Part shown: positions 19,331 through 56,700 of the stretch, piece after piece
How the letters are laid out: each line of letters opens with the position of its first letter
Position numbering within the stretch: the stretch's first letter is position 1
NCBI GenBank assembly: GCA_051294905.1
Contig: CM119372.1
Coordinates: 32,242,001-32,302,000 of the forward strand
Origin: Botryllus schlosseri
Taxonomy: Eukaryota
Direction: 5' to 3'
Length of the DNA stretch: 60,000 nt
Made by a program: the position numbers and the translations under genes
Notes under the pieces: model-generated
Seen by the model: only the letters and a program-made list of their open reading frames with translations
Told to the model about the DNA's origin: nothing
The model's database searches: none

Positions 19331-20346
19331 GGATACATCTGGTAGGGGCAGAAAGTTGATTAAACGGAAAGAGAGCAATGCATACGTCAAAAGCTGGATA
19401 TGGAACCCGACCTACGCGTCACATATTACGGTCGAATTCACGCTGAGAAATTTTGCGGTTTCGCTTGCGCGCCTCTCAATTATCTGACGAAAATCCGCAT
19501 GGTAATACTTGGCCAATTATCGTGTTTCCGTATCATGGGTTTCAGTCAATATATAATGATTTATATAACGATTTCATACACCAAAAGAATATCAGTTGAA
19601 AGTTTACATTGTTCTCGTTTAGCATGATGGCTATGAACCCGAAATGAGAAGCTCTATATTATTATTGTATTGCCTCGTAAAGTCAAATTCCAATTTGCGA
19701 TACTAGTAGCCATATACCATTGTCCGCAGTAGGAAAATTATTCGGAGTTGTCCGGCCGCCTTTAGATGGCTCTGCATTAGTCTTTTACTAGAAAGTGGCG
19801 GTAGTTTTTCTAGTATTCCGCTGGATAGCTTTTTTTATGTTTGTTTGGTACCTCACAGTAATTGAGGCCGTGGTATTTTATCATACTCGCGTTCCGGAGA
19901 TAACCGGATTTATATTTTAAGATCCAAATCCAAGTCCAAATTTTTTGAAAAATTAAATGTCGTATGCAAATTGGAAATATTGAAGACTTCAAGTATAGCA
20001 TATCAAATCCAAGTCGAGCTTATAAAATCGCAATTCCAATATCCGATCCGTATTCATCCAAAATCATCAAAGCCGTTTCTTTCAAATCTATATCCACATT
20101 CAAGTGTACCTCTGCGAGTTCCACTCTTAAAACCAGTCAGTTAGTTCTAGTAGCATACTTAAAGCCTATAGCTAGTCAGTAATCTGCAGTGTCGTGATTT
20201 TATAATTCCAGAAAGCATTCGATGAGAGATAGTAACCGACAAAATCGAGTTCATGTCTGTTGTCTACGCCTGCAATTCACAAATATTGTAAGAGCAAAGA
20301 TTGTGTCGATTAACATCTCGCCTTACTCCGCAGATTCTACTGTATC

Positions 20347-20474
20347 ATGCACCCGATGAGAGATACGATAATAGTAGCATTTATCATCATACTTCTTCTT
20401 AGTCTGGCTGCACCATCGAACGCTACAATCCAGCGGCAAAGAGCGCAAGTGGTGGCCTTGCCAAGAACAACCAG
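20347..20474 (+). other. Orphan exon or short ORF encoding a signal peptide (MHPMRDTIIVAFIIILLLSLAAPSNA-TIQRQRAQVVALPRTT)
   Basis: Upstream acceptor ccttactccgcag|20334, hydrophobic core with S-N-A cleavage pattern, possible donor AG|gtacaa; no downstream exon confirmed. Confidence 0.45.
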
Positions 20475-20566
20475 GTACAAAAACATATGAAGTCATGGAC
20501 TTCAAGAGCTTCTTGGAGGTACAGAACTTCAATATACAATTAAATAGTATATTCATATTGAAATGA

Positions 20567-20600
20567 ACCCGAATATTTTCGGCTGACACTCGTCAGGGGT
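20567..20600 (-). ncRNA. Second copy of the minimal hammerhead motif, in the inverted arm
   Basis: Exact reverse complement of 21794-21827. Confidence 0.82.
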
Positions 20601-20809
20601 AATCGTCAGCAACTAGTAGAGAATTGGAAAGAACATTGTATATCAACAATCGTATCACAAAATATGACGTCACCAGCATGAAATTTCGAATGAGAGAGCG
20701 TTCAATGTACTATTTTTAGGTGATACACGAACTCCTTTTGTTGACAGAGTTTTGGTTGGTGTATTTTGATAAAAGTTGATTCCAAGGCACACAAATGGAA
20801 TTGTGAACG

Positions 20810-21692
20810 CAATAACTCATTATCATTTCTGGACGTATTAGTTGAAAAGCGCAATACCAACAAATTTGAAACGTCTGTTTTCAGAAAACCGACATTCACA
20901 GGCCAATACCTTCGCTGGAATTCATTTAGTCCTCGGCGCAGAAAAATTAACCTCATAGGCACACTCGTGCATAGAGCGTTGATGATATGTTCGGGTAACA
21001 AACTGAGTTTAGAACTTGACTACATCCGAAAAATCTTACTTGATAACGGTTACCCTGAACACGTCATCAGCCGCGGCATGGAGAGGAAATTAACGCAATT
21101 CAACGCAGAAAAACGAACAGAGCCCACCGCACGAACAATAAAAGATGTTTATATCCATCTACCTTGGATTGGCCCCATTTCCACCCGCTTTGAAAAACAA
21201 TTGATTTCTGCTGTCGGTAAATGTTACGATACAGTCAAAACCAATGTGATTTTTACAACAACACAACTGCTCCCTTCAACACGCAAAGACGTGCTTCCTG
21301 CACTTCAACAAAGTAATGTAGTGTACGAATATAGGTGCCACTGTGATTGTGGCTACGTGGGAAGAACGTCAAGACGTCTGCAGGACCGCATAAACCAACA
21401 TGTCCCCAGATTTATCAGAACACGTGCGTCACGCGATGTGAAAAGCTCACCCTTAACTCATCCACTTAAGATTGATGCTGATCGATCAAAGGCAATTGAT
21501 TCTGCCATCGGCAAACATCTGTTGGATAATCCGATTTGTGCGAATAATTATCGAGACGACCGATTTCGAATCGTAGGTCGAGGCCGTTCACAATTCCATT
21601 TGTGTGCCTTGGAATCAACTTTTATCAAAATACACCAACCAAAACTCTGTCAACAAAAGGAGTTCGTGTATCACCTAAAAATAGTACATTGA
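20810..21692 (+). CDS. Penelope-like ORF, C-terminal part: end of RT and thumb plus GIY-YIG endonuclease, open to its stop
   Basis: LSFLDVLV, FRKPTFTGQYL, LLDNGYP, VVYEYRCHCDCGYVGRTSRRLQDRINQH, SAIGKHL, LESTFI; the RT catalytic core is missing. Confidence 0.92.
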
Positions 21693-21793
21693 ACGCTCTC
21701 TCATTCGAAATTTCATGCTGGTGACGTCATATTTTGTGATACGATTGTTGATATACAATGTTCTTTCCAATTCTCTACTAGTTGCTGACGATT

Positions 21794-21827
21794 ACCCCTG
21801 ACGAGTGTCAGCCGAAAATATTCGGGT
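21794..21827 (+). ncRNA. Minimal type I hammerhead ribozyme motif in the Penelope pLTR
   Basis: ACCC-CUGACGA-G(UGUCAGC)C-GAAA-AUAU-UC^GGGU: stem I ACCC/GGGU, intact core, palindromic AAUAUU stem III. Confidence 0.82.
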
Positions 21828-22071
21828 TCATTTCAATATGAATATACTATTTAATCATGGACTTCAACATACCGATATAAATGTGCAGTGATACTGTTCA
21901 TGAGATTTCATGGATTACAATATATAGTCGTGCCGTAAAACACGCGTGTAGGATATGGCGTTTTAGAGTTCAAAATTGTGTCAAAATCATCAAAACTATC
22001 CTCATGCCTGTGCTAACAATTATGTACGGTTCACTAGCTTAGTGAAATTTGTTGTCTCAATTGGGTTAGAT

Positions 22072-23390
22072 CAGGGGTGGGCAAACTTTTGAGCTCGCGG
22101 GCCGCATTCAACATCTGCATCCATTCGCGGGCCGCACTATATAAAATTGGGATTATAAACCAAAACGCAATATTGGTATTTGATTATATAGTGAGGACAT
22201 GGATATAATATATGTGCTTATTTAAAACTAAGAAAACATTGCTTTGATGATCGTACACGCGTCAGAAACAGTGGCGAGATTTTATAGGCTGGTCGACCTC
22301 AATAACGAATTTGTCGAAACTATAGAAATGAAAGTCGGTCGTCCCAGTTCTTAAAAAGTCATTCAAATCTAAATCTGTGAGCAGTGATCCGTTTCCTAAA
22401 TCCACTTTTGGTTCCATTCCACGACACACAATGTTGACAGCATCATAACAATGTTAGCTTCAAACACGCTTCTACTATATGTGCTTATAAAATATAAATA
22501 CCCTAATTCTACGCATACAGACAACGAATCTACCTAAGACACGCGCGAATCGTTTTTTATAAGCACATCACTGAAATAATTAAAAGAGGAGTTGCCAATC
22601 TGAAATCACACTCGTGACCCGAATTGTGTCAATCTCATTTAGGATTTCTGTGATATTTAGCATTTGAAACCTTTCAAACTGCGTGGGCCTTGAGATCGGG
22701 CTGTCGCGCCAGAAATTAAACATAAAAAACCTTAAGACGTTAGAACAGTGGTTCTCAAACTTTTAAAGACACGCCACCCCCCCTTATGATGGTGAAAGAT
22801 TTCGTGCCCCCTTATCGTCATATCAAAAAACGCAACCAGGATGCTGGCAAACCCAACGGACAGTTTGATGTCATGGAAGGCTACGACTGTTCAGACTAAA
22901 TACAGAGCGAAAACTGTTATGTTCTTGATCTTGTTTGAACAATAACTCAATACGACGAGGTTGCAATACGGAATCAGTATATTGTACAGCAGAATAACTT
23001 TAGGCAGCGACACGATCCAGACTGCAGTTAAATGAAAGACCACGAGAGAACAGACAAATAAGAGACAAGCGATACCAACGTAAAATGCACGAACATAACA
23101 AAAACTATGAATAGGGTGTAAGTCGCGCGAAGCGCGAAAAAAATTCAGTTGCGCTCAGTTTCACACTCCCTTCAGATGCTTTCACGCCCCCCCCCCAGTT
23201 TGAGAACCACTTCCTTGGCATTATCATGGTGAAATATACTAAGAAATAGTTTAATCAAGTCCCTGCTGAAATTATTAGTAGGCTACGCATTTTGTCAATA
23301 TTTTAAAAAGTTTCTTTAAACTCTCGCGGGCCGCACAGAACGGTGATGCGGGCCGCATGCGGCCCGCGGGCCGTAGTTTGCCCACCCCTG
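22072..23390. mobile_element. hAT composite MITE, copy 2, nearly identical to 7327-8645
   Basis: Same 1319-bp sequence with only a handful of substitutions; its own perfect TSD GGTTAGAT. Confidence 0.93.
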
Positions 23391-23457
23391 GGTTAGATAG
23401 ACGTTCTGGTTTTAGATGTTGACGCAGTGGTTAACTGGCACACAGTGTATTTTGAAC

Positions 23458-26042: not shown

Positions 26043-27105
26043 CCCCAGAAAGCCGAAGTGATGACCTTTTTTTCTGTCGTTACGCACTGTTTTCCGAGGG
26101 ACCGCGCCAGTGAGTTGTTGAGTGTGCGCAGACTCGTGAAAAATTAGAGGGGATATCGAGGGGCAGTATTTGATATTGAAAGCGTATTGCCTTTGGGGAT
26201 TATTTAACGCAATTTTTCAGGGAAATAGCCACAAAATGACGACTTTCAGGATTAAACGAACTTTTGCCTTGTCGGAGCACTACGATGCATATATGGTAGT
26301 AGTGGATGGGAGATGATGAACTAATCTAAAGTCTTATTCACCTCTCCAAACCCAAGATACCCTGTACCAGGCCTGAGCAAAGTGCGACCCGCGGGCCAAA
26401 TTCGGCCAGCGGAGCTATTCTGTACGGCCCGCGAAAGGTTGCTTGAAATTGAAAATATATAACCTACTTTTTAATGTTGCTGTGTATGGACTAAAACCAT
26501 AGGATGTATAAATTGAAGCTGAAATTCGTTTACTATCAAGCCCATTCGTTAACATGCCGCGATTACGCAGCCTATACGTACCTCACATGCCTAATCCAGA
26601 TTCAAAGTAAAGTCAAAGTAGCAAATTATACCGTTACAATTAAAGTCACAAGAAGTAACCAAACCTTCTTTCAGGGATATCTAGACTGTGCGGCCCGCGA
26701 GAGTCTGAAGAAACTTACTAAAATATTGATAAAATGCGTACTAAAAATCGAATTAATGCGGGGACTTGATTAAACTTATTCTTAGTAGGCTATATTTCAC
26801 CATGATAATTCTAAGGCAGTGGGTCTCAACCTGGGGGACCCGTGCCCCTTGAGGTCATGAAAGCATCTGAAGGGGATCGCGACGCTGAGCTCAACTGAAA
26901 AATTTTCTCGCACTCTGCGCGATTTACTTCCAATTCATAATTATAGCTCTGTATTTTAGTATGAATTTCATATTTAAAAATCTCTCATCAATAGTCGTAA
27001 CCTCCCATGCCACCAAACTATCCGTTAGGTTGGCTATAGCATGCTGGTTGCGTTTTGTGATATGACGATAAGGGGGCGCGAAATCTACACATATATAGTA
27101 GAAGC

Positions 27106-27366
27106 GTGTTTAAAGCTAACATGGTTATTATCCCACCCCTAAAACCTCAGATAGTCGGGTTTCTAGGTCCAGAGGACTTCACCGTTACCAGGCAACAGCT
27201 TCAAAGTAAAAAATCTGATATGTGCGCTGATCATTGTATTTCATATTTAATTAAAAGATCTCAAGGTTTTTCAACTGAACAGTATCTAAATTATTTTGGT
27301 GATAAAAAATGTGAGAATGATAAAATTGTTCGTGTTTTTGTAAAGAGCTTGATTACAGGTGCCTAA
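27106..27366 (+). pseudogene. C-terminal fragment of an adenain-like cysteine protease (Polinton/Maverick/adintovirus PRO type)
   Basis: PP....I..FL........QLQSKKSDMCADHCISYLIKRSQGFS....NYF.....NDKIV matches the QLQ..S..CG.C....R..G.S......F.....ND..V pattern; the catalytic His region is absent. Confidence 0.72.
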
Positions 27367-38740: not shown

Positions 38741-41700
38741 CTGTAATGTAGATAAGGAGTATATTATGATTAGTTGAACCGCCATAGTTTATTGGTGAGA
38801 CCAACGCGCAGGGTTTAATATCCGGCCGCTTTCTCTAAAGAATCCAACCAATCCAACCACTGACAAGAAGAAAAAAACAGTGCTGATCCGAAGCGCAGGG
38901 TAAATGGGTGGAGTTGCTTCATGATGGGCATACGATGTAACAATTCAGCCAGACTGCTTGCAATTACTTACTTGCGAATGAATTATTAAATAAATATCCA
39001 TTTCAAACCCCTAACTTTCCTAGGTATGCCACTGCAAACGACGTGACACTACGACCGTCTTAATTCGACGATTGTTTGCGTTTAACTTCCTGCAACCAAT
39101 GATGAGCAAGACGCTGGCTATTTTGATCACCTCTAAATAAAGGTTATTCAGTTATTAAAGTGAGACAATTTAACTTTTTAGTCGGGCTGTATGTTAGCAG
39201 ATGATGTTCACGTGCTCAATAAAGACTCGAGGTCCATACCTAGTGAGCTATAAAGATGGAGATTGTTTAATATTCAAATTGCATCAGCGATTACGCACCA
39301 ATCAAGAGCATCGATAGGCCCATTCTGGCGTTGTCGTATATCCAGCATGACCCCCTTCCTGCGCCGCACAAACGTTCCTGCCATAATATGCACGTCGTGT
39401 CGATTACCGCGCCGAACGCAATAGGACCTGGTATGCTTCCCAATGCTCTCATGAACATCCACTGTACACCAATGGCAAATGATCGTTGCGAATCCGGTAC
39501 GCATCTTCAGACAAGTAAAAAAGTTATACTTTTTTGGCAGCCTCACGACAACCAATACCACACAAGATGAGATTTCATATTTTCCGATACATATCCTATT
39601 CCATATTTTATTTCTTAATCGTAGTTCCAATCCAAATGCCCATCCGTTGATACTTTTAATTTATTGAAACATCGTGACAAAAATTGAAAATTACTTGGGA
39701 ATTCAAAATTACATTCGATCAAACAAAGCATAAAAATAGGATATTATTCGAAAGGCAAATCATAATCTAATTCCGTGAATATCGTTCCATATACAGTCAA
39801 ACTGTATAATATAGACATCCGTTTTCGCAAATCAAAATGCTAATCATAATCACACGCAATGCAAATTTCGAAATCCTGTACACCAGTCTTGGTTACAAGT
39901 TGAAAATACTGATTTCTGTTGCAGATCCAAACTCTATGTGTATCATTTACAAGTGGAATTTCATATCCTAGTCAATTTTCTATGTCGTTACACTGAGGAG
40001 GTAATGAATCATAAATCTTGACTCTAATGTCTTACAGATATTGCCATGGATTTCAATTCGAAACAAAGCAGATATGAGTCGGATTTAGATTTACGGTATT
40101 AGTGAAGTCTGTTTCGGATTCGGACTTGTAATCTCGATTAATTGCAGATTTTGATACGTTTTAACCACGTACTAGATATAGATTGGGATATGAACAGTTG
40201 AACATAACATATAACATACTGTGCATTCGGATGGTAATTCGGATTGGCAACTTATATCGGGGATATACTGGATAATAGTTGTATAGAAATTACATGGAAA
40301 TCGGACAAATTCTTCAATTCAAAAATCCATATGACGTAATGAAATGTGGATTGCACGCAGTGTTCAGGGTAGATGTTTGATATGACGCCGAGAAGTTCAT
40401 TGACATTTCTCTGATTACTTGTCCGTCATTCATTTCAGCACCGCGTTGAAGTAATAAATAATTTTTATGACTATCTCTCACCTAAACGTTACAACCAATG
40501 CTGGTACCGTTGACATGAAGCAAACCATAACAACGACGAAGAACACGATCAGGAAAGGCGCTACCAGATTGCAGTTGTCTTCACACAGACCTTCCGTTGC
40601 TGTGGAATTACCGCTGGAGATGCACCCGCATTTGTTGTATTGCTATAACACAAATGCGACATCAAAATATATTTACAGTATCGCAGGCTATATATCAGGG
40701 GTGGGCAGACCTGCTTCATATGGGAGCCGCTTATCAAAAATCTTAGCCACAACACAAAAATTCGAAAATATAAATTTATGACTTTACAATGAAATGTAGG
40801 CTACCGAATGAAGTATATTATTGCGTGATGAGACGGTGTGTCTCCGCCTATGGGGTGCAAGGTCTTTGAAATCAGGCTGATATGCAGTGTTGGGATGACT
40901 CGAGTCACCTTTTTCGTGTGACTTGGCTCGACTCGGGTTAGTTTGCCAAAATGACTCGACTTGACTCGACTCGGCGTATCAGAAATGTGGATTGACTTGT
41001 GACTCGGAGCAAAATTCACTAGTCAATTTCAAGTCATCAAATAATCGTTGTCACTAAAAATCACTGTATCTTGCATATGTTCGGATTGCTCGCGAAACGC
41101 CGTTGTAACCCGTGAGAGCGACCAATCAGTCAATGATCGTGCGTTTTACTGAGCCTCCATTGTTCTCTCACAAATAAATTGACCGCAAACGAAGTGGTCG
41201 AAGCTTACAGCTTACGTGCTTCATTACTGCTAAAACTTGAGGACTCAGATAAACAGAATGGCCATCTGAGATGGAATATTCTGCTGTGTAAGCTCACTTT
41301 ATTTGTCAAATTGCCAATAACCTACTGATACAAACACATTACTGTTTAGAGATGTTTTGTTGTTGAAGTTTTGGAAAAAATATTGTTTGCGGAAATCCAT
41401 TTTCTTCTGTGATACACATAACCGGTATTCCAGAATAACTTCAAGATGAGCTGCTAGATATAAAAGACTAGGCCGGACGTTGTATGTTCATTAAATAAAT
41501 GTTCTCAATTTTGGTGCCAATATGTTGCGATCATACCCAAAGGTGTCTTCGCGGAAGCGTTACGCATCATTATTACAACCGCCGCCACCTGCACCTATCT
41601 TTGCGGAAAGGGATTGTCGGCAGTCGTTCATATAAAACAGACTGCTGGATTTTCAAGACACGACCGCATATTTCAAGAAATGCAGCTACAGAACTCTCTT

Positions 41701-44700: not shown

Positions 44701-47700
44701 TTGAATCGCGCCCGAGGACCACTCGAATAATTAACAAGATAATAACTGTATGTGCTATATTCGGGATCAAATCAAGGTTATAGGTACGGGCTCATACCAT
44801 CTTGTTCGAGCCCGATGTACATCACGTCAGGCATTCACCTCTGCGATTGGCATTACGGGAAAGTTAATTGTATTGGGTTATGTTTTATTGCTTTGTGTGA
44901 CTAGTAAATCAACTGAGAGTGTGGTAGAGTTCTTTGCTCACATTGAATTTACTACTGCACCCATCTCTTAATTTTAACATAAATATATTCTACACAAAGC
45001 GACCCATATTATATAACGTTCATGTATATTGTGGGTCATAAAACTAAACAGTATCATCCTTTATGATACAATGAAGAAATACTCTGACGATTTAATTTTG
45101 TAGCTCTCAAATGCAAGTATAGTTAGTTAATCATTTTGGCCGGAAAGCTTCAAAGCATCTTTAATGTATAAAGGGGTGCAGCAGTGGTACAGCAGTGTCT
45201 CTTCGATTTCGACACGATGCGCGCTGCAGGATACAATGTACATGAATGTACCTATGTACCTATAGTTAGAAACATTTTGTGGAAAATAACCCGATCTAGC
45301 GTGACGGGAGTGTTTTAACGGGGAATTGACGACCTAAAAGTACGCGCACTTCATTTTACACGAATTATAATAAGCCACTGTATTGATGGCAACATCGCGC
45401 GACAAAAAATTTCTAGATTTGACAGATTTTGTCGAATTTGAATTTGCAATGAGAACTCAAGGATATATAGAACTATTATTCTATTATATAATCATATGCC
45501 CCTACTACACCATCTACTGCGACGCCATTTTTCTTCAGCGGCCTCTATACCACCCCCAGAGCCCAGCGCCCCCCATATCGCACCTGAGAGTTTACGCCAC
45601 CTTTAAAATCCAAATCGCCCCCTGGGGGCGCTCGAGACAAGGTGAAGAACCACTGGTGTACATTAACATAGGATATCACTTCATCGAAATGTAGGTTTGG
45701 TAGTAGCAATATGACGTCACGTGACGTCATGAGGTTCACGTTCGCGTTCATACATAACCTTTCAAAAAAGTTCGCGTTCACTAGAACCTGAGCCTTTCGG
45801 AGGTTCACACCATCCCTAATGAATATACCTAATTACGATCAAGACTCTCTAACTGTCACTCTCTAGCATCATATATAGTTGCAAAAAACGGTTGCATCGC
45901 CATATACTTCACATTTTGGCTTCATTTCAATTTTGAAAGTTCACCGGTCCGCCAGAATTTTTTTGGAATTTTACCGGTCCGCCAGGTGAAAAAGGTTGAG
46001 AACCACTACTTCAGAACGTGTCGTAACATTTTGTACACGGGAAGTAGATTCAACTGGTCACTAATTTCCATCTATGAAGTGATGTGAAAAGTACACAAAT
46101 ATGACATATTGACTACTCATGACATCACAGTTGATGGGGCGATATCGTATTCTTCCACTTTTTGACTGTACCGGCAAACATACGTTATACCCATAGATAA
46201 TGATACAAGTTCAAAGACGGATAGTCTGTGTGTGATCGCAGTTTCAGAGAGTCAATCAGTTTAAAATTAAAACTTGAATCAGTTTGAAATACTTTACAGC
46301 GATATATAAAACTATACATAGTTCTATATATCCCTGATATTTTAGAGCTACTTATGGGTAGAAAATGCAGATGAAAAATTATTTCCTGTGTTCGATAGTA
46401 ATATTTTGGTCTCACGCATGACCACTGTAGTCGACAAACATGAATACCACAAACTACAACAGCCGTGTATTATTAAAATGTTACTACAGAACACACTCTC
46501 TCCCGAGAGAGAGAGAGCGAGAGAGAGAGAGAGAGAATATTTTTTTTCGACAACCGGGCAAATCAGTAACATACTTGGTCGGAATGCAAAGGGAGAGATA
46601 TGATATACAGATTTGCAAGTTATTAAGTCGGGGCTGGATATAACTAGAAGAAGAAAATAACAAAATATTCCGTAATGCACAAAACCATGTACTTGCCGCG
46701 TCATCTTCCACGTAACCAGTGCATCCGGCTTGACACGGTGAAAAATATCCTATCTTGTCGTCACCGCACACTGGCTTGAAATACGCCTCCTGACAGTTGC
46801 AGTCGTAATTGCAAGTCGATGTCAAATTCGATGGCGGATGGACCATTTGAGAGTCCCTAAAATATATTTTGGAAGTTTAGAGGTTCACGCAGATCGCTCA
46901 ATAAAGTCTGTGGGCTGTGAAAGGTTTACTTACGGAGACTGGTCAACATCCTGGGTTACCAAACCCAACATCTCATCTCTTAAAGCAGGGGTCGGCAACC
47001 TTTTGGTAGTCACGGGCCAAATTTCGAGTGTACAACTTTTTCGCGGGCCGGAATTTTTATAATACTATATTTTATGCTCACTTCGGTATATTATCCTACA
47101 TTGCTGCAATCTCAATCCTACCATTAACAAAACACATTTATTTACACTTCAACAACGCAAAATAAATGTGACAATTGACGCAGCTTACTTTGTGATAGGT
47201 TTTCAACTTCTGGTAACAAGTCAGATGAAGCAAGAATCTGACCATATTTTAAATGGGCGTCCGAAATAGTGATCTTAGCTTGCTCTTCGTGAATTTCATT
47301 GTTGAAAACTATTGTTTACATGCGTACGTGCTACCAAATATCGATGCAATTTCTTTTGCATTGTTGGTCAAGTTGGGATAAAGACCAATTTCAAGAAGGT
47401 ACTCTTTGTAAAGTCATGCAGCGATATGCTCTTTGTATGAAATTTGTCTTTCAATTCAACTGCATCGCATTTCGAAACGGCCCGTTTGAAATTTTCAGGA
47501 AATGGTATTGGCGTCCACATTAAACGGACTACTGAATAGTCGGAATTTATTTTATAGAGAAGCAATTTATGAAAAGCGGGTGAATATTCAGTAAATAAAT
47601 TTCGTATCACAGTTACAAATGTAGTGTTGGTACTAGGTTTTCTCTCCTCCAGTATAGGAACGTGAGCATAATTTCTTTGTATTGTTGACATTCCCAGGGT

Positions 47701-53700: not shown

Positions 53701-56700
53701 CAGACAACGTGACTCACTCATCCCAATATTGTTTGGAATATTTACCTATTCCACAGGTTCCTGTTTGATTGTTTGTTTGAGGTGTTCATGGTGCGCGTAG
53801 ACTACAATGATAATTTACACCACGCCGGTATTTCTTATTCTTTGATTCCGCAGCTGCCAACTTGTCGCGCGGTCCACTTCCAAGCTTTTGTCAGACACCG
53901 CGCTTGCACGGATGAGATGGTGAGGAGAAGTAAAGGATTTAGACTTTTGCTTTAGATTCAAATATAACACAGCAATTGGGTAGATCCGCAACTGTTAAAT
54001 GATTTGAAATGTCACCTCAACAGAACGGTGCGGATTCTCTTATTGCTATAATAAGTAGCGCCTGTGAATCAATATATGTGGCGTCATCAGTTATTCTGAA
54101 TTGATTATAAAAGAAAGGTTTACAACGCCTGTTGTCAATCGATTACTTCTTTGAAATACCTGCCTACATTTCAAACCTCGTTTTAGCATGTGTCGGTTAT
54201 CCCTACCTCAGATTTGAATTGGTAAGTAATTTTGCAATACCTTCATTTCTACTTGAGTAGCCTCAGTGGACTACAATGATAGCCATGGACTGGTCATGTT
54301 ACATCAAGTACCTGGTAATTGTTTCGGAAAACCTGACATGGGCCCAGTGACAAGCACAAATGCCATTGCGGCGGATAAGAGCATTCCGATCCACCAAGCT
54401 CCGACCCATCTGGGATCACTTGGTTCCAATGTTAACCTGAAGAATATTTCTTGGTAGTGAGCGGAGCACAGTTTCTTAGAAGTCGACAACTTACTGATCC
54501 ATCGCTTCCGGGTCTTCGAAATCCACATATAGAAATAGAAAGCCGCCTCCGAACACATATCCCAATACCGGGCCAAAGATGGACAACGCATTTGCCAGGC
54601 CTAAATTATCAAGCGAGCTTTCAACTAATAAAGTATACATAATGTTATTTCAGCATATTATGACAATAATTACGATTAGATTGTTTTATGGACACACTTC
54701 ACAACTATATGAAGCTTCGAATTCTGTTGAAGTTTGCAATTTGAACATTCTGTATTGCTTGACGTTAAGCATTCTATATCCTTGGCAAGGAGATTGGAAT
54801 GGAAGAGCTGAAATATCAAATTCCAGTATCTATACAGATATATCTAATTATATAGTTTCCCTGTGAATAGTCGTTGTGTAGAAATAAGAGACAATGAGGA
54901 AAAGTCGCTGGGCTTATGCCATATGGGAAGCCGATCACCAAAGTAGAAACAATCCAACAGGAAATGAAACTGTGATTAGGGCTATAGAGACAAAACGATG
55001 ATGACCTTTTATATTCAACAGTATGGATGGTGTGCACGTGACGTTCACGTTTGTGTTCGTGAGTTTGAACAACCACAGACATTTGGAGGTTCGCGTTCGC
55101 AAACGAACCTTGGCAGGTTCTATACTGTGAATCTTATATATATATTACATATTTGGCACGACATTATTGTATATTTGGCTGAAATGATATCCATTTAAAC
55201 TCTCTGCAAGGCTCCAGCAAAATAAAAAGAAATTCAGCACTAAAGGAACATGCACCTAGCTCTTTTCGAAAATTTCATTTGCTCTGTTAAAATAGTTTCC
55301 ACGAAATATTGAGCTTTCCGTTTGTGAATATTTAGTGAATCTCTGATGTGCTCTTGGCTGGCAATAAAAATTATCATCTATGATTGTCATCAACGAAATA
55401 GATATAAATAATGCATGATGTTGACGAATGTGAAAATATATCAGGCGCACAGGATCTATCTCGATTTAATATGTTTATTGTATCATTAAAACCATGTCGC
55501 ACATTCGCTAGTTCTCGAGAACCCGAGTTGTGATACAAATAAAACTGATCCTACAATTGGTATTGCTATGACGAAGCGCTATAGGCATACCAAGGTACCA
55601 CGAAGCCTGTTCTTTCCTCACACTATCTTCAATAAAAGAATATCCAAGAGTATAGAGAGGGGTTGCGCCGGCACCATGTAATAGCTGCCCGACTATAAAT
55701 ACATAGAGGTACGCGTGCAGATTTTCGGAGTCTTCGTTTGATGTGGAACAGTCGATTGGCTTATCGGAGCAAACGTCTGAAAATATGTATATGTTACAAT
55801 GGAAACGTGTTGGGGAGATGTGGTACCGATGGATCACTGGGACCGAAAATACTTGAAAAATTCTCCATGATAATTCCATGATTACACTCCGTGAATTTGT
55901 CTACAATTACATGCTGACAGAATCTTTCTTGACATGCGAAAAAATTCGACCTGAGTGAGTTATGGGGTCTGTGACGAATGATTTGCGATTTAGGAGGTGT
56001 AAAGTAAATTTGGATCGACATTTTCATTTTTCTATATCACCTTCCAGACTAACAAAACCGGCTTAATTTTTGATGTGAAGTATAGGGCTTGTATCAGGGT
56101 ATATAATGGCACATATTTTTTGAATCAATACCATCCACGAGTGGACTATTTTCAAGTCTATTACAATATTTATGGGGTGGGGGACCTATGGTACCATAGC
56201 CAAATCCAGCAAAATAGATAGACCAACTAATCACTTAACAACAGAAACTCGCCTACATATATATAGGTTGTAAATCATAGTTACCTGTGGTGTTTTATCG
56301 CTACTACGAGGTATTTGAAAGTCAAAATGTCGATTTGCGGGTAATATGTATGTGGCATTAATTTTGTAAGTTTAGGCGTAAATCAAAACATGATTTTATG
56401 CCAACATTTGAGTTGATATAATCTATTTTATTCTTGAAGGTCGCTACGAAACATTCTTCATTGGCTGCTGTAGCTTTGCTTATAGTACACAACAAAACAA
56501 GTTGACAAATTTGAGTTTTTGAGCGTATGTCTCATAGGTCCCATGATCGTGTGCCTTTGGACCCACCGGGTGGGGACCGATGACACGTTCGAGCATCAAA
56601 CTTTAAACGTTTATAAATATTTTTTGAAAAAGCGGATATTCATGTAAATGTCCGCGATAGGTAGGGCTTGTATCGAAGTGTTGAGACAGCAAAAGATCTG

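Follow-up and report, generated by a model that had tools for sequence, protein, structure and literature searches.

A polymorphic, 5′-truncated Penelope-like insertion in Botryllus schlosseri, likely made of two separately primed cDNAs joined head to head

Inverted, 5′-truncated copies are frequent among Penelope-like elements (PLEs), according to the general scheme of Craig 2021 (PMC8557442). The closest described cases are Pen2a_Av and Pen2_Av of Adineta vaga (Arkhipova 2013, PMC3846280), which show an inverted 5′-truncated copy at the 5′ end, a tail of 31 bp on one side only, first ORF codons within the pLTR and tail, and target-site duplications (TSDs) of 8–10 bp around the unit. For PAc, a Poseidon element of Anolis carolinensis, both target strands are cleaved and extended, two start sites of the reverse transcriptase (RT) bound the tail, and a dimer is predicted (Frangieh 2024, PMC11167929). 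Metazoan PLEs also carry minimal hammerhead ribozymes, and dual motifs on opposite strands, 100–700 bp apart, have been noted; in monomeric form these motifs did not cleave, and as dimers they did so at a low level (Cervera and De la Pena 2014, PMC4209133). Dimer-cleaving minimal variants are attributed to Lunse 2017, as cited in PMC6466107 and PMC6765202. Loop II pseudoknots occur in all three hammerhead types, in about 40% of representatives, and the active ribozyme with a 1-bp stem II and a 6-bp pseudoknot is a type II metagenomic one (Perreault 2011, PMC3088659).

We have analyzed a 60,000-nt stretch of Botryllus schlosseri DNA, termed here the window, which contains a PLE insertion of this kind (Table 1). 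Like the A. vaga elements, the insertion has an inverted 5′-truncated copy at its 5′ end, a one-sided tail (33 nt), first ORF codons in pLTR and tail, and a TSD around the unit. It differs from them (PMC3846280) in its 13-bp TSD, in having neither an upstream direct pLTR nor a junction palindrome, and in belonging to another family and host. With PAc the window family shares an RT with C-terminal GIY-YIG, a hammerhead beside the start codon, and two 3′ ends that bound a tail within the start of the ORF. The start codon follows the predicted cut here, whereas the PAc cut lies 26 nt after the start codon, and the end points fall at codons 6 and 17–18 against +111–118 in PAc (PMC11167929). Head-to-head copies that combine a TSD, a pLTR hammerhead and a tail on one side are an already described PLE form, and we are nearly certain both of the Penelope-like identity of the element and of its belonging to this known architecture. 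The fuller description, held with good confidence, is that an abundant Penelope-like retrotransposon with an endonuclease has left a polymorphic, 5′-truncated insertion here, which is likely very young and likely consists of two separately primed cDNAs placed head to head.

Table 1. Features of the insertion, with positions in the window.
Feature	Position	Strand	Remarks
Left TSD copy, 13 bp, TCATGGACTTCAA	20493–20505	+	Single copy at the empty allele
PLE tail, 33 nt, codons 7–17 of the element ORF	20506–20538	−	Only on the inverted arm
Inverted, 5′-truncated copy of the element 3′ end	20539–20809	−	271/271 identical to 21585–21855
Hammerhead motif with pseudoknot strand in the inverted arm	20567–20610	−	Descriptor match; predicted cut opposite 20571
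Putative 5-nt microhomology at the head-to-head junction	20805–20809	+	Contains an in-frame Glu codon
5′-truncated PLE ORF	20810–21692	+	No internal stop
Direct element 3′ end, tail-less	21585–21855	+	Tail-less family ends lie behind 21851
GCUGAC pseudoknot strand, predicted 6-bp helix with loop II (21807–21812)	21784–21789	+	Compensatory changes in L009, L003, L007
Minimal type I hammerhead motif, predicted cut after C21823	21794–21827	+	Descriptor match; core pattern
Element ORF start codon inside the pLTR	21838–21840	+	14 nt after the predicted cut
Right TSD copy, 13 bp	21855–21867	+	First T common to the element end

The two arms are exact reverse complements along 271 nt, without a mismatch, and are separated by 775 nt; the perfect inverted copy described in an earlier note on this DNA is hence borne out. 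The note had taken the whole arm as pLTR, which holds for part of it only: 163 nt are 3′ UTR/pLTR, and the other 108 of the 271 nt are the end of the ORF, with the stop codon at 21690–21692. The left boundary it had set at 20539 had to be moved to the true element end at 20506, while its outer coordinates, 20493 and 21867, stand as the limits of the TSD. Direct repeats of at least 13 nt were shared by only 4 of 20,000 random pairs of 60-nt windows.

The tail brings the inverted cDNA to 304 nt. The proposal that it is filler or transduced flank was rejected, since it is family sequence. Matching to the element stops before 20504, with unlike flanks beyond, in 340 contigs of X1 (which may be the assembly's own sample), 368 contigs of X5 (another sample, from another study), 54 contigs of X6 and 308 reads of the RNA run X23. 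A second, tail-less family end lies near 21851 (100 X5 contigs, 54 X23 reads), the two end points being about 33–37 nt apart. From the start codon onward, pLTR and tail encode MNILFNCILKFCTSKKL, in agreement with the N-termini of full-length homologues, and the core of the tail is common to the L009 family, one of the related families found in metagenomes. This core (AAGTTCTGTACC.CCAA; 20506–20530 on the minus strand, L005:1410–1430) is kept at nucleotide level between families of about 52–55% protein identity. TTNAA words stand at both family end points and at the TSD end beside the inverted arm (20501–20505, 21850–21854), and likewise at ends in the L009 family (junctions of L019 and L035); they may mark a preference in targeting or priming. 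Over the last 200 nt (21700–21855 region), contig depth is several times that at the ORF end, summed contig depth being used here for 3′ bias only and not as a copy number. Of 3,394 X23 reads that could be placed, 98% continue into unlike sequence, which points to many very short 3′ copies lying within host transcripts.

The truncated ORF comprises RT motif 7, the thumb, a linker without Zn finger, and a GIY-YIG endonuclease with CCHH. Its own Pfam match is weak (GIY-YIG, E 0.11), but 65 longer homologues combine RT and GIY-YIG, the best with 60% identity (E 1.6e-104), and the two homologues scanned with Pfam gave RVT_1 followed by GIY-YIG. The endonuclease pattern VYEYRCHCDCGYVG...H...H is present in the window protein and in 121 of the 128 proteins tested. 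The Zn-finger motif Cx2-5CxxC was found in none of 128 linkers, the window's included; this linker motif characterises Neptune and Nematis, and its absence suggests the Penelope/Poseidon clade. All 27 homologues of at least 800 aa have the DKG motif, which in the window copy has been truncated away together with the RT core; lacking most of its RT, this copy was likely dead on arrival. The sole named homologue is a tapeworm hypothetical protein (32% identity). None of the 65 longer homologues, of which the best reaches 60%, is a full-length protein of the window's own family, a blank that weighs little; closer relatives do exist, namely a protein from another public contig with 235 of 236 residues identical and a sibling at 82%. 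Among 40 candidate PLE relatives in viral contigs, none was confirmed. The Penelope-like identity claimed by the note is supported by the 65 RT and GIY-YIG homologues, the CCHH and the pLTR features; of the characters of endonuclease-bearing PLEs, a pLTR with hammerhead, the optional tail of 30–40 nt, an arrangement that may be direct or inverted (inverted here) and a TSD are all present. Non-LTR retrozymes, defined as tandem non-coding repeats with a sense hammerhead in each (10.64898/2026.07.22.740005), were considered and rejected, as the locus has a coding remnant, inverted and not tandem arms, and one motif per strand.

The insertion is polymorphic. An empty allele is present in X5, on a 1,960-nt contig where 20492 is joined straight to 21855 with one copy of the repeat, and the variation in presence between individuals raised by the earlier note is herewith documented in a second sample. 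On an X1 contig the left junction is found with 0 differences at a depth of 7.9. Over 19942–20358, X1 shows two haplotypes, with 0 and 32 differences and depths of 7.7 and 10.2, the second of which has variants in common with the empty X5 allele. Because this second haplotype carries empty-allele variants and the junction contig stands at haplotype depth, X1 is probably heterozygous for the insertion.

These data also bear on whether the inverted arm could be an assembly artefact, that is, a fold-back chimera. Zero mismatches between arms would suit such an origin, as would the fact that the inner and right junctions were not found among the 24 records listed (142,002 more lay outside this listing); X1 depth is zero at 21901–22000, a hole that by itself proves nothing. 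The left junction, however, includes the inverted tail on a contig that has the depth of one haplotype and no differences. Further, a genuine family tail sets the two ends apart, the empty allele bears out the TSD, and the head-to-head form recurs in other copies and families. We hold an artefact to be extremely improbable. An older insertion would be conceivable if a short tailed copy had landed on a truncated copy already in place, or if gene conversion had kept the arms identical. PLEs tend to insert beside existing copies (review PMC6765202), and short 3′ copies are far deeper in contigs than the ORF. Such histories nevertheless have to account for one TSD that brackets the whole unit, for an empty allele without both arms, for the absence of a duplication at the inner junction, and for a unique body that is an open frame nearly identical to another copy; we consider them very unlikely. 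Identical arms date an insertion loosely, but a single and very young insertion is the likely reading. Recent activity of the family, as the note had proposed, is upheld by the identical arms, the intact TSD, the uninterrupted frame, the empty allele and the nearly identical protein encoded elsewhere.

With respect to how the insertion was formed, the asymmetry of the arms is informative. The tail is found on the short arm alone and the segment 20810–21584 on the long arm alone, so neither arm is a sub-copy of the other. By sequence logic, fold-back of an integrated, long target-primed cDNA would run into the flank and not into a tail. We favor, by a modest degree of confidence, an origin of the window copy from two primers. 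The RT-GIY-YIG protein would nick both target strands 12–13 nt apart; the 3′ end of the top strand (...TTCAA) would then prime at the downstream start site, in the first ORF codons, giving the 304-nt tailed cDNA, and the end of the bottom strand would prime at the upstream site, giving a tail-less cDNA of 1,046 nt. Both would be separately primed, templated on one RNA or on two. Their 3′ ends could anneal over about 5 nt, and repair would fill both strands. The junction microhomology is probable and rests on a conserved Glu: the in-frame codon at 20805–20807 falls within the inverted arm, Glu occupies this position in 139 of the 145 homologues holding the motif, and the chance of such a coincidence is about 2 in 64. 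At the right junction there is only 1 nt of match to the target, which speaks against this origin.

A comparable process is twin priming of L1, in which both target nicks prime and leave a copy whose 5′ part is inverted, with microhomology at the junction and a single TSD. In L1 the inverted part is upstream sequence and the 3′ end is not duplicated, whereas here both cDNAs would start at the 3′ end and so generate an inverted repeat.

The alternative is a self-priming fold-back on an antisense or extrachromosomal intermediate, followed by an endonuclease resolution that leaves one tail, as was proposed by Arkhipova 2013 (PMC3846280) and Craig 2021 (PMC8557442). Our search for priming models, with most subscription journals outside it, found only this 2013 self-priming proposal and the 2024 in vitro paper. 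The behavior of the family at other sites has to be weighed here. Of the 15 joints listed (out of 1,663 in all), 13 connect the left arm with the right one and can be assigned to further head-to-head copies, whose arms measure 35–153 and 49–259 nt; 3 of the 13 occur in two runs. At least 30 letters on the short side are present in only 4 of these 13, the others being soft, as repeats can yield such joints. Near-equal arms, within 32 nt of each other, are found in 10 of the 13, a pattern that fold-back explains no less well than two primers do, and microhomology at the inner junction is compatible with either model. From the 80 related metagenome loci we chose 9 whose 5′ side bears an inverted copy. 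Direct words of 12–13 nt stand at the ends in 5 of the 9 (4 distinct insertions); of the other 4, one has an 8-nt word, and no such word is present in the remaining three, one of which lies at a contig end. L019/L023, L027 and L035 each have a single tailed end, that of the long arm, an arrangement which does not discriminate between the priming models. In the window copy, by contrast, fold-back of target-primed cDNA would need a further template switch or trimming to explain a tail on the short arm together with 775 extra nt on the long one, and no palindrome is present at the inner junction; moreover, two RT start sites and the cutting of both strands have been shown in vitro for a relative (PMC11167929). 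Fold-back is regarded as a doubtful, if serious, explanation of this copy, and the two-primer origin is retained as the working reading.

Each arm carries the motif ACCC CUGACGA G UGUCAGC C GAAA AUAU UC^GGGU, composed of a 4-bp stem I, CUGACGA, a 1-bp stem II, GAAA, the palindrome AAUAUU and the cleavage triplet UUC. Positions are numbered in the usual hammerhead scheme (G10.1–C11.1, C3, G8). The core CUGANGA, GAAA, an NUH triplet, a closing stem I and G10.1–C11.1 are all present. These two are the only matches of the hammerhead descriptor in the whole 60 kb, and the core pattern, matched twice in the window, was matched in none of 100 shuffles. An Rfam search gave no hammerhead match; two weak snoRNA matches (E 0.81 and 5.1) were rejected as chance. 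In the inverted arm the motif without its pseudoknot strand spans 20567–20600 on the minus strand. The minimal type I motif with palindromic stem III recognized by the earlier note is thus confirmed in sequence; its location about 30 nt inside the outer ends is right for the right arm (predicted cut 32 nt in) and wrong for the left, where it lies 65 nt inside the true end. Stem I covaries in a 14-row alignment (A2), and the stem III palindrome, AAUAUU in the window, is AAGCUU in the L009 and L007 families; the self-duplex predicted for stem III is weak (−0.2 kcal/mol). With the PLE hammerheads of Cervera and De la Pena 2014 (PMC4209133) the motif shares the core, the 4-bp stem I, G10.1–C11.1 and the palindromic stem III, but it departs from their consensus, which has a stem II of 6–8 bp and a bulged base after position 9: both are absent here, and a 1-bp stem II with a 7-nt pairing loop and a pseudoknot is present instead. 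The window motif is to be taken as a true structural relative.

The predicted helix between loop II and the strand on the stem I side covaries in other families (UCUGAC/GUCAGA, UCCGAC/GUCGGA, UGACGC/GCGUCA). Random 21-mers reach a 6-bp helix in 0.5–1.8% of draws; a fifth family has a helix of 5 bp (5% of random draws). In A2, which consists of 14 hand-picked rows, ten of them from one family, with near-duplicates and the doubtful L064 excluded, 88% of the pseudoknot cells pair, as against 79% when shuffled and at most 52% when slid; as L003, L007 and L041 are misaligned at the pseudoknot, these figures are indicative and the random 21-mer comparison is the fairer one. A relaxed hammerhead descriptor, adopted because the strict one gave 6 matches in 5 of 80 related metagenome loci, gave 23 matches in 22 of the 80, plus the two of the window. 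As a control, 39 core-pattern matches in viral contigs, chance-like and with several duplicates, included 0 with a stem I of at least 4 bp, 6 with a palindrome and 1 with a pseudoknot-like helix. Core position 3 is U and not C, with G8 kept, in 17 of 18 hammerhead rows of the L009 family (e.g., L005:1337–1396), the canonical C3 being found among the L009-family rows (L001–L060) in L009 alone. A second CUGACGA at 21785–21791, 13 nt upstream of the true core, forms the pseudoknot strand, and the same word is present in the L009 family. A loop II/stem I-side pseudoknot is common to the window motif and to those of Perreault 2011; the window hammerhead differs from the 1-bp stem II example of that paper (PMC3088659) in its dimer-type stem III and in a core to which loop II can pair. 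PLE hammerheads with such a pseudoknotted stem II may already have been described, in Lunse 2017 or in the supplements of PMC4209133 or PMC8557442.

Loop II can also form 5 bp with the core, in competition with the pseudoknot strand, the predicted probabilities being 0.59 and 0.40. The monomer fold that is predicted is not a hammerhead, as core/loop II and CCGAA/UUCGG hairpins win, and stem I has a pairing probability of 0.00–0.04 without the antisense arm, in a model blind to pseudoknots, dimers and any assistance by protein. Within full-length tandem transcripts, the motif would likely fold with the loop II pseudoknot and a dimeric stem III, probably with help from protein; the two hammerheads at this locus would be passive copies of the single pLTR motif.

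We finally considered whether the locus itself could act, being transcribed through, with the 271-bp hairpin feeding siRNA and the hammerheads cutting transcripts of either strand. The core, stem I, palindrome and pseudoknot are all intact in sequence, a perfect duplex is predicted for the read-through RNA, and rotifer PLE families give small RNAs (PMC3846280). Transcription of a plus-strand read-through RNA would pass the antisense arm before the sense one, and the fold predicted for it has all 271 arm pairs formed (duplex −101 kcal/mol) and the motif covered; because this pairing buries the motif, cleavage and hairpin are mutually exclusive in one molecule. Since each strand carries one sense hammerhead, no cis dimer is possible. 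Monomeric minimal hammerheads, moreover, did not cleave and their dimers cleaved little (PMC4209133), and the Anolis motif needed protein and had no RNA-seq ends at its cut site (PMC11167929). The note's self-cleavage site on either strand is accordingly retained as a sequence motif and is weakened by the single motif per strand, the non-hammerhead monomer fold and the burial in the hairpin; its read-through hairpin stands as a predicted fold, set against essentially no RNA reads on the flanks. In X23, which belongs to another study and probably to another individual that may lack the insertion, and whose library does not capture small RNA, depth on the unique flanks is 0–0.17 and, in the roughly 6% of the run that was read, there is no place where many molecules begin or end, so that this evidence weighs little. 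No host gene was found over the site, with 1 of 148 ORFs of at least 62 aa below 45.3 kb having a Pfam match in a survey that misses small exons. All together, a working hairpin or ribozyme at this locus is judged unlikely, and we hold with considerable confidence that the window copy is inert both as ribozyme and as siRNA source. Selection as a regulator is improbable for a single copy that is itself polymorphic; by analogy, some contribution of hairpins of the window's family to small RNAs is plausible.

The one ORF with a Pfam match belongs to an OATP exon at a distance of 17 kb. The gene, an OATP (SLCO) transporter with a Kazal domain, has exons on the minus strand at 39294–39506, 46487–46876 and 55511–55900, the insertion being located about 17 kb past the last OATP exon found. 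To the left, a 40-codon, signal-peptide-like frame (20356–20475, plus strand) ends at a GT 18 nt from the TSD; as a host exon it was rejected, having no Pfam match, no homologue, Atlas scores of only 0.79 and no RNA depth. To the right, high-copy MITE-like repeats occupy 22046–22100, 22442–23391 and 26367–27131, several with inverted partners 3–4.6 kb off.

Taken beyond this copy, the data tentatively suggest, at somewhat less than even confidence, that PLE integration is two-ended: a dimeric RT-endonuclease would nick the two strands 12–13 nt apart and make one cDNA at each of two TTNAA-like sites near the ORF start, head-to-head products with one tail would arise directly, and the hammerhead would act as a pseudoknot-gated switch, loop II keeping the core off until the upstream strand, a partner and protein engage. 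The locus is of little import in itself; it can be used as a presence/absence marker and testifies to an active PLE family in B. schlosseri. This family has two sharp 3′ ends and apparently many inverted junctions, and its relatives have TSDs of 12–13 bp, so that two-primer and fold-back origins could well be told apart in it; its pseudoknotted, dimer-type minimal hammerhead with a 1-bp stem II is a cheap assay target. If integration is indeed two-ended, the window copy, with its tail on the short arm, would be a discriminating case.
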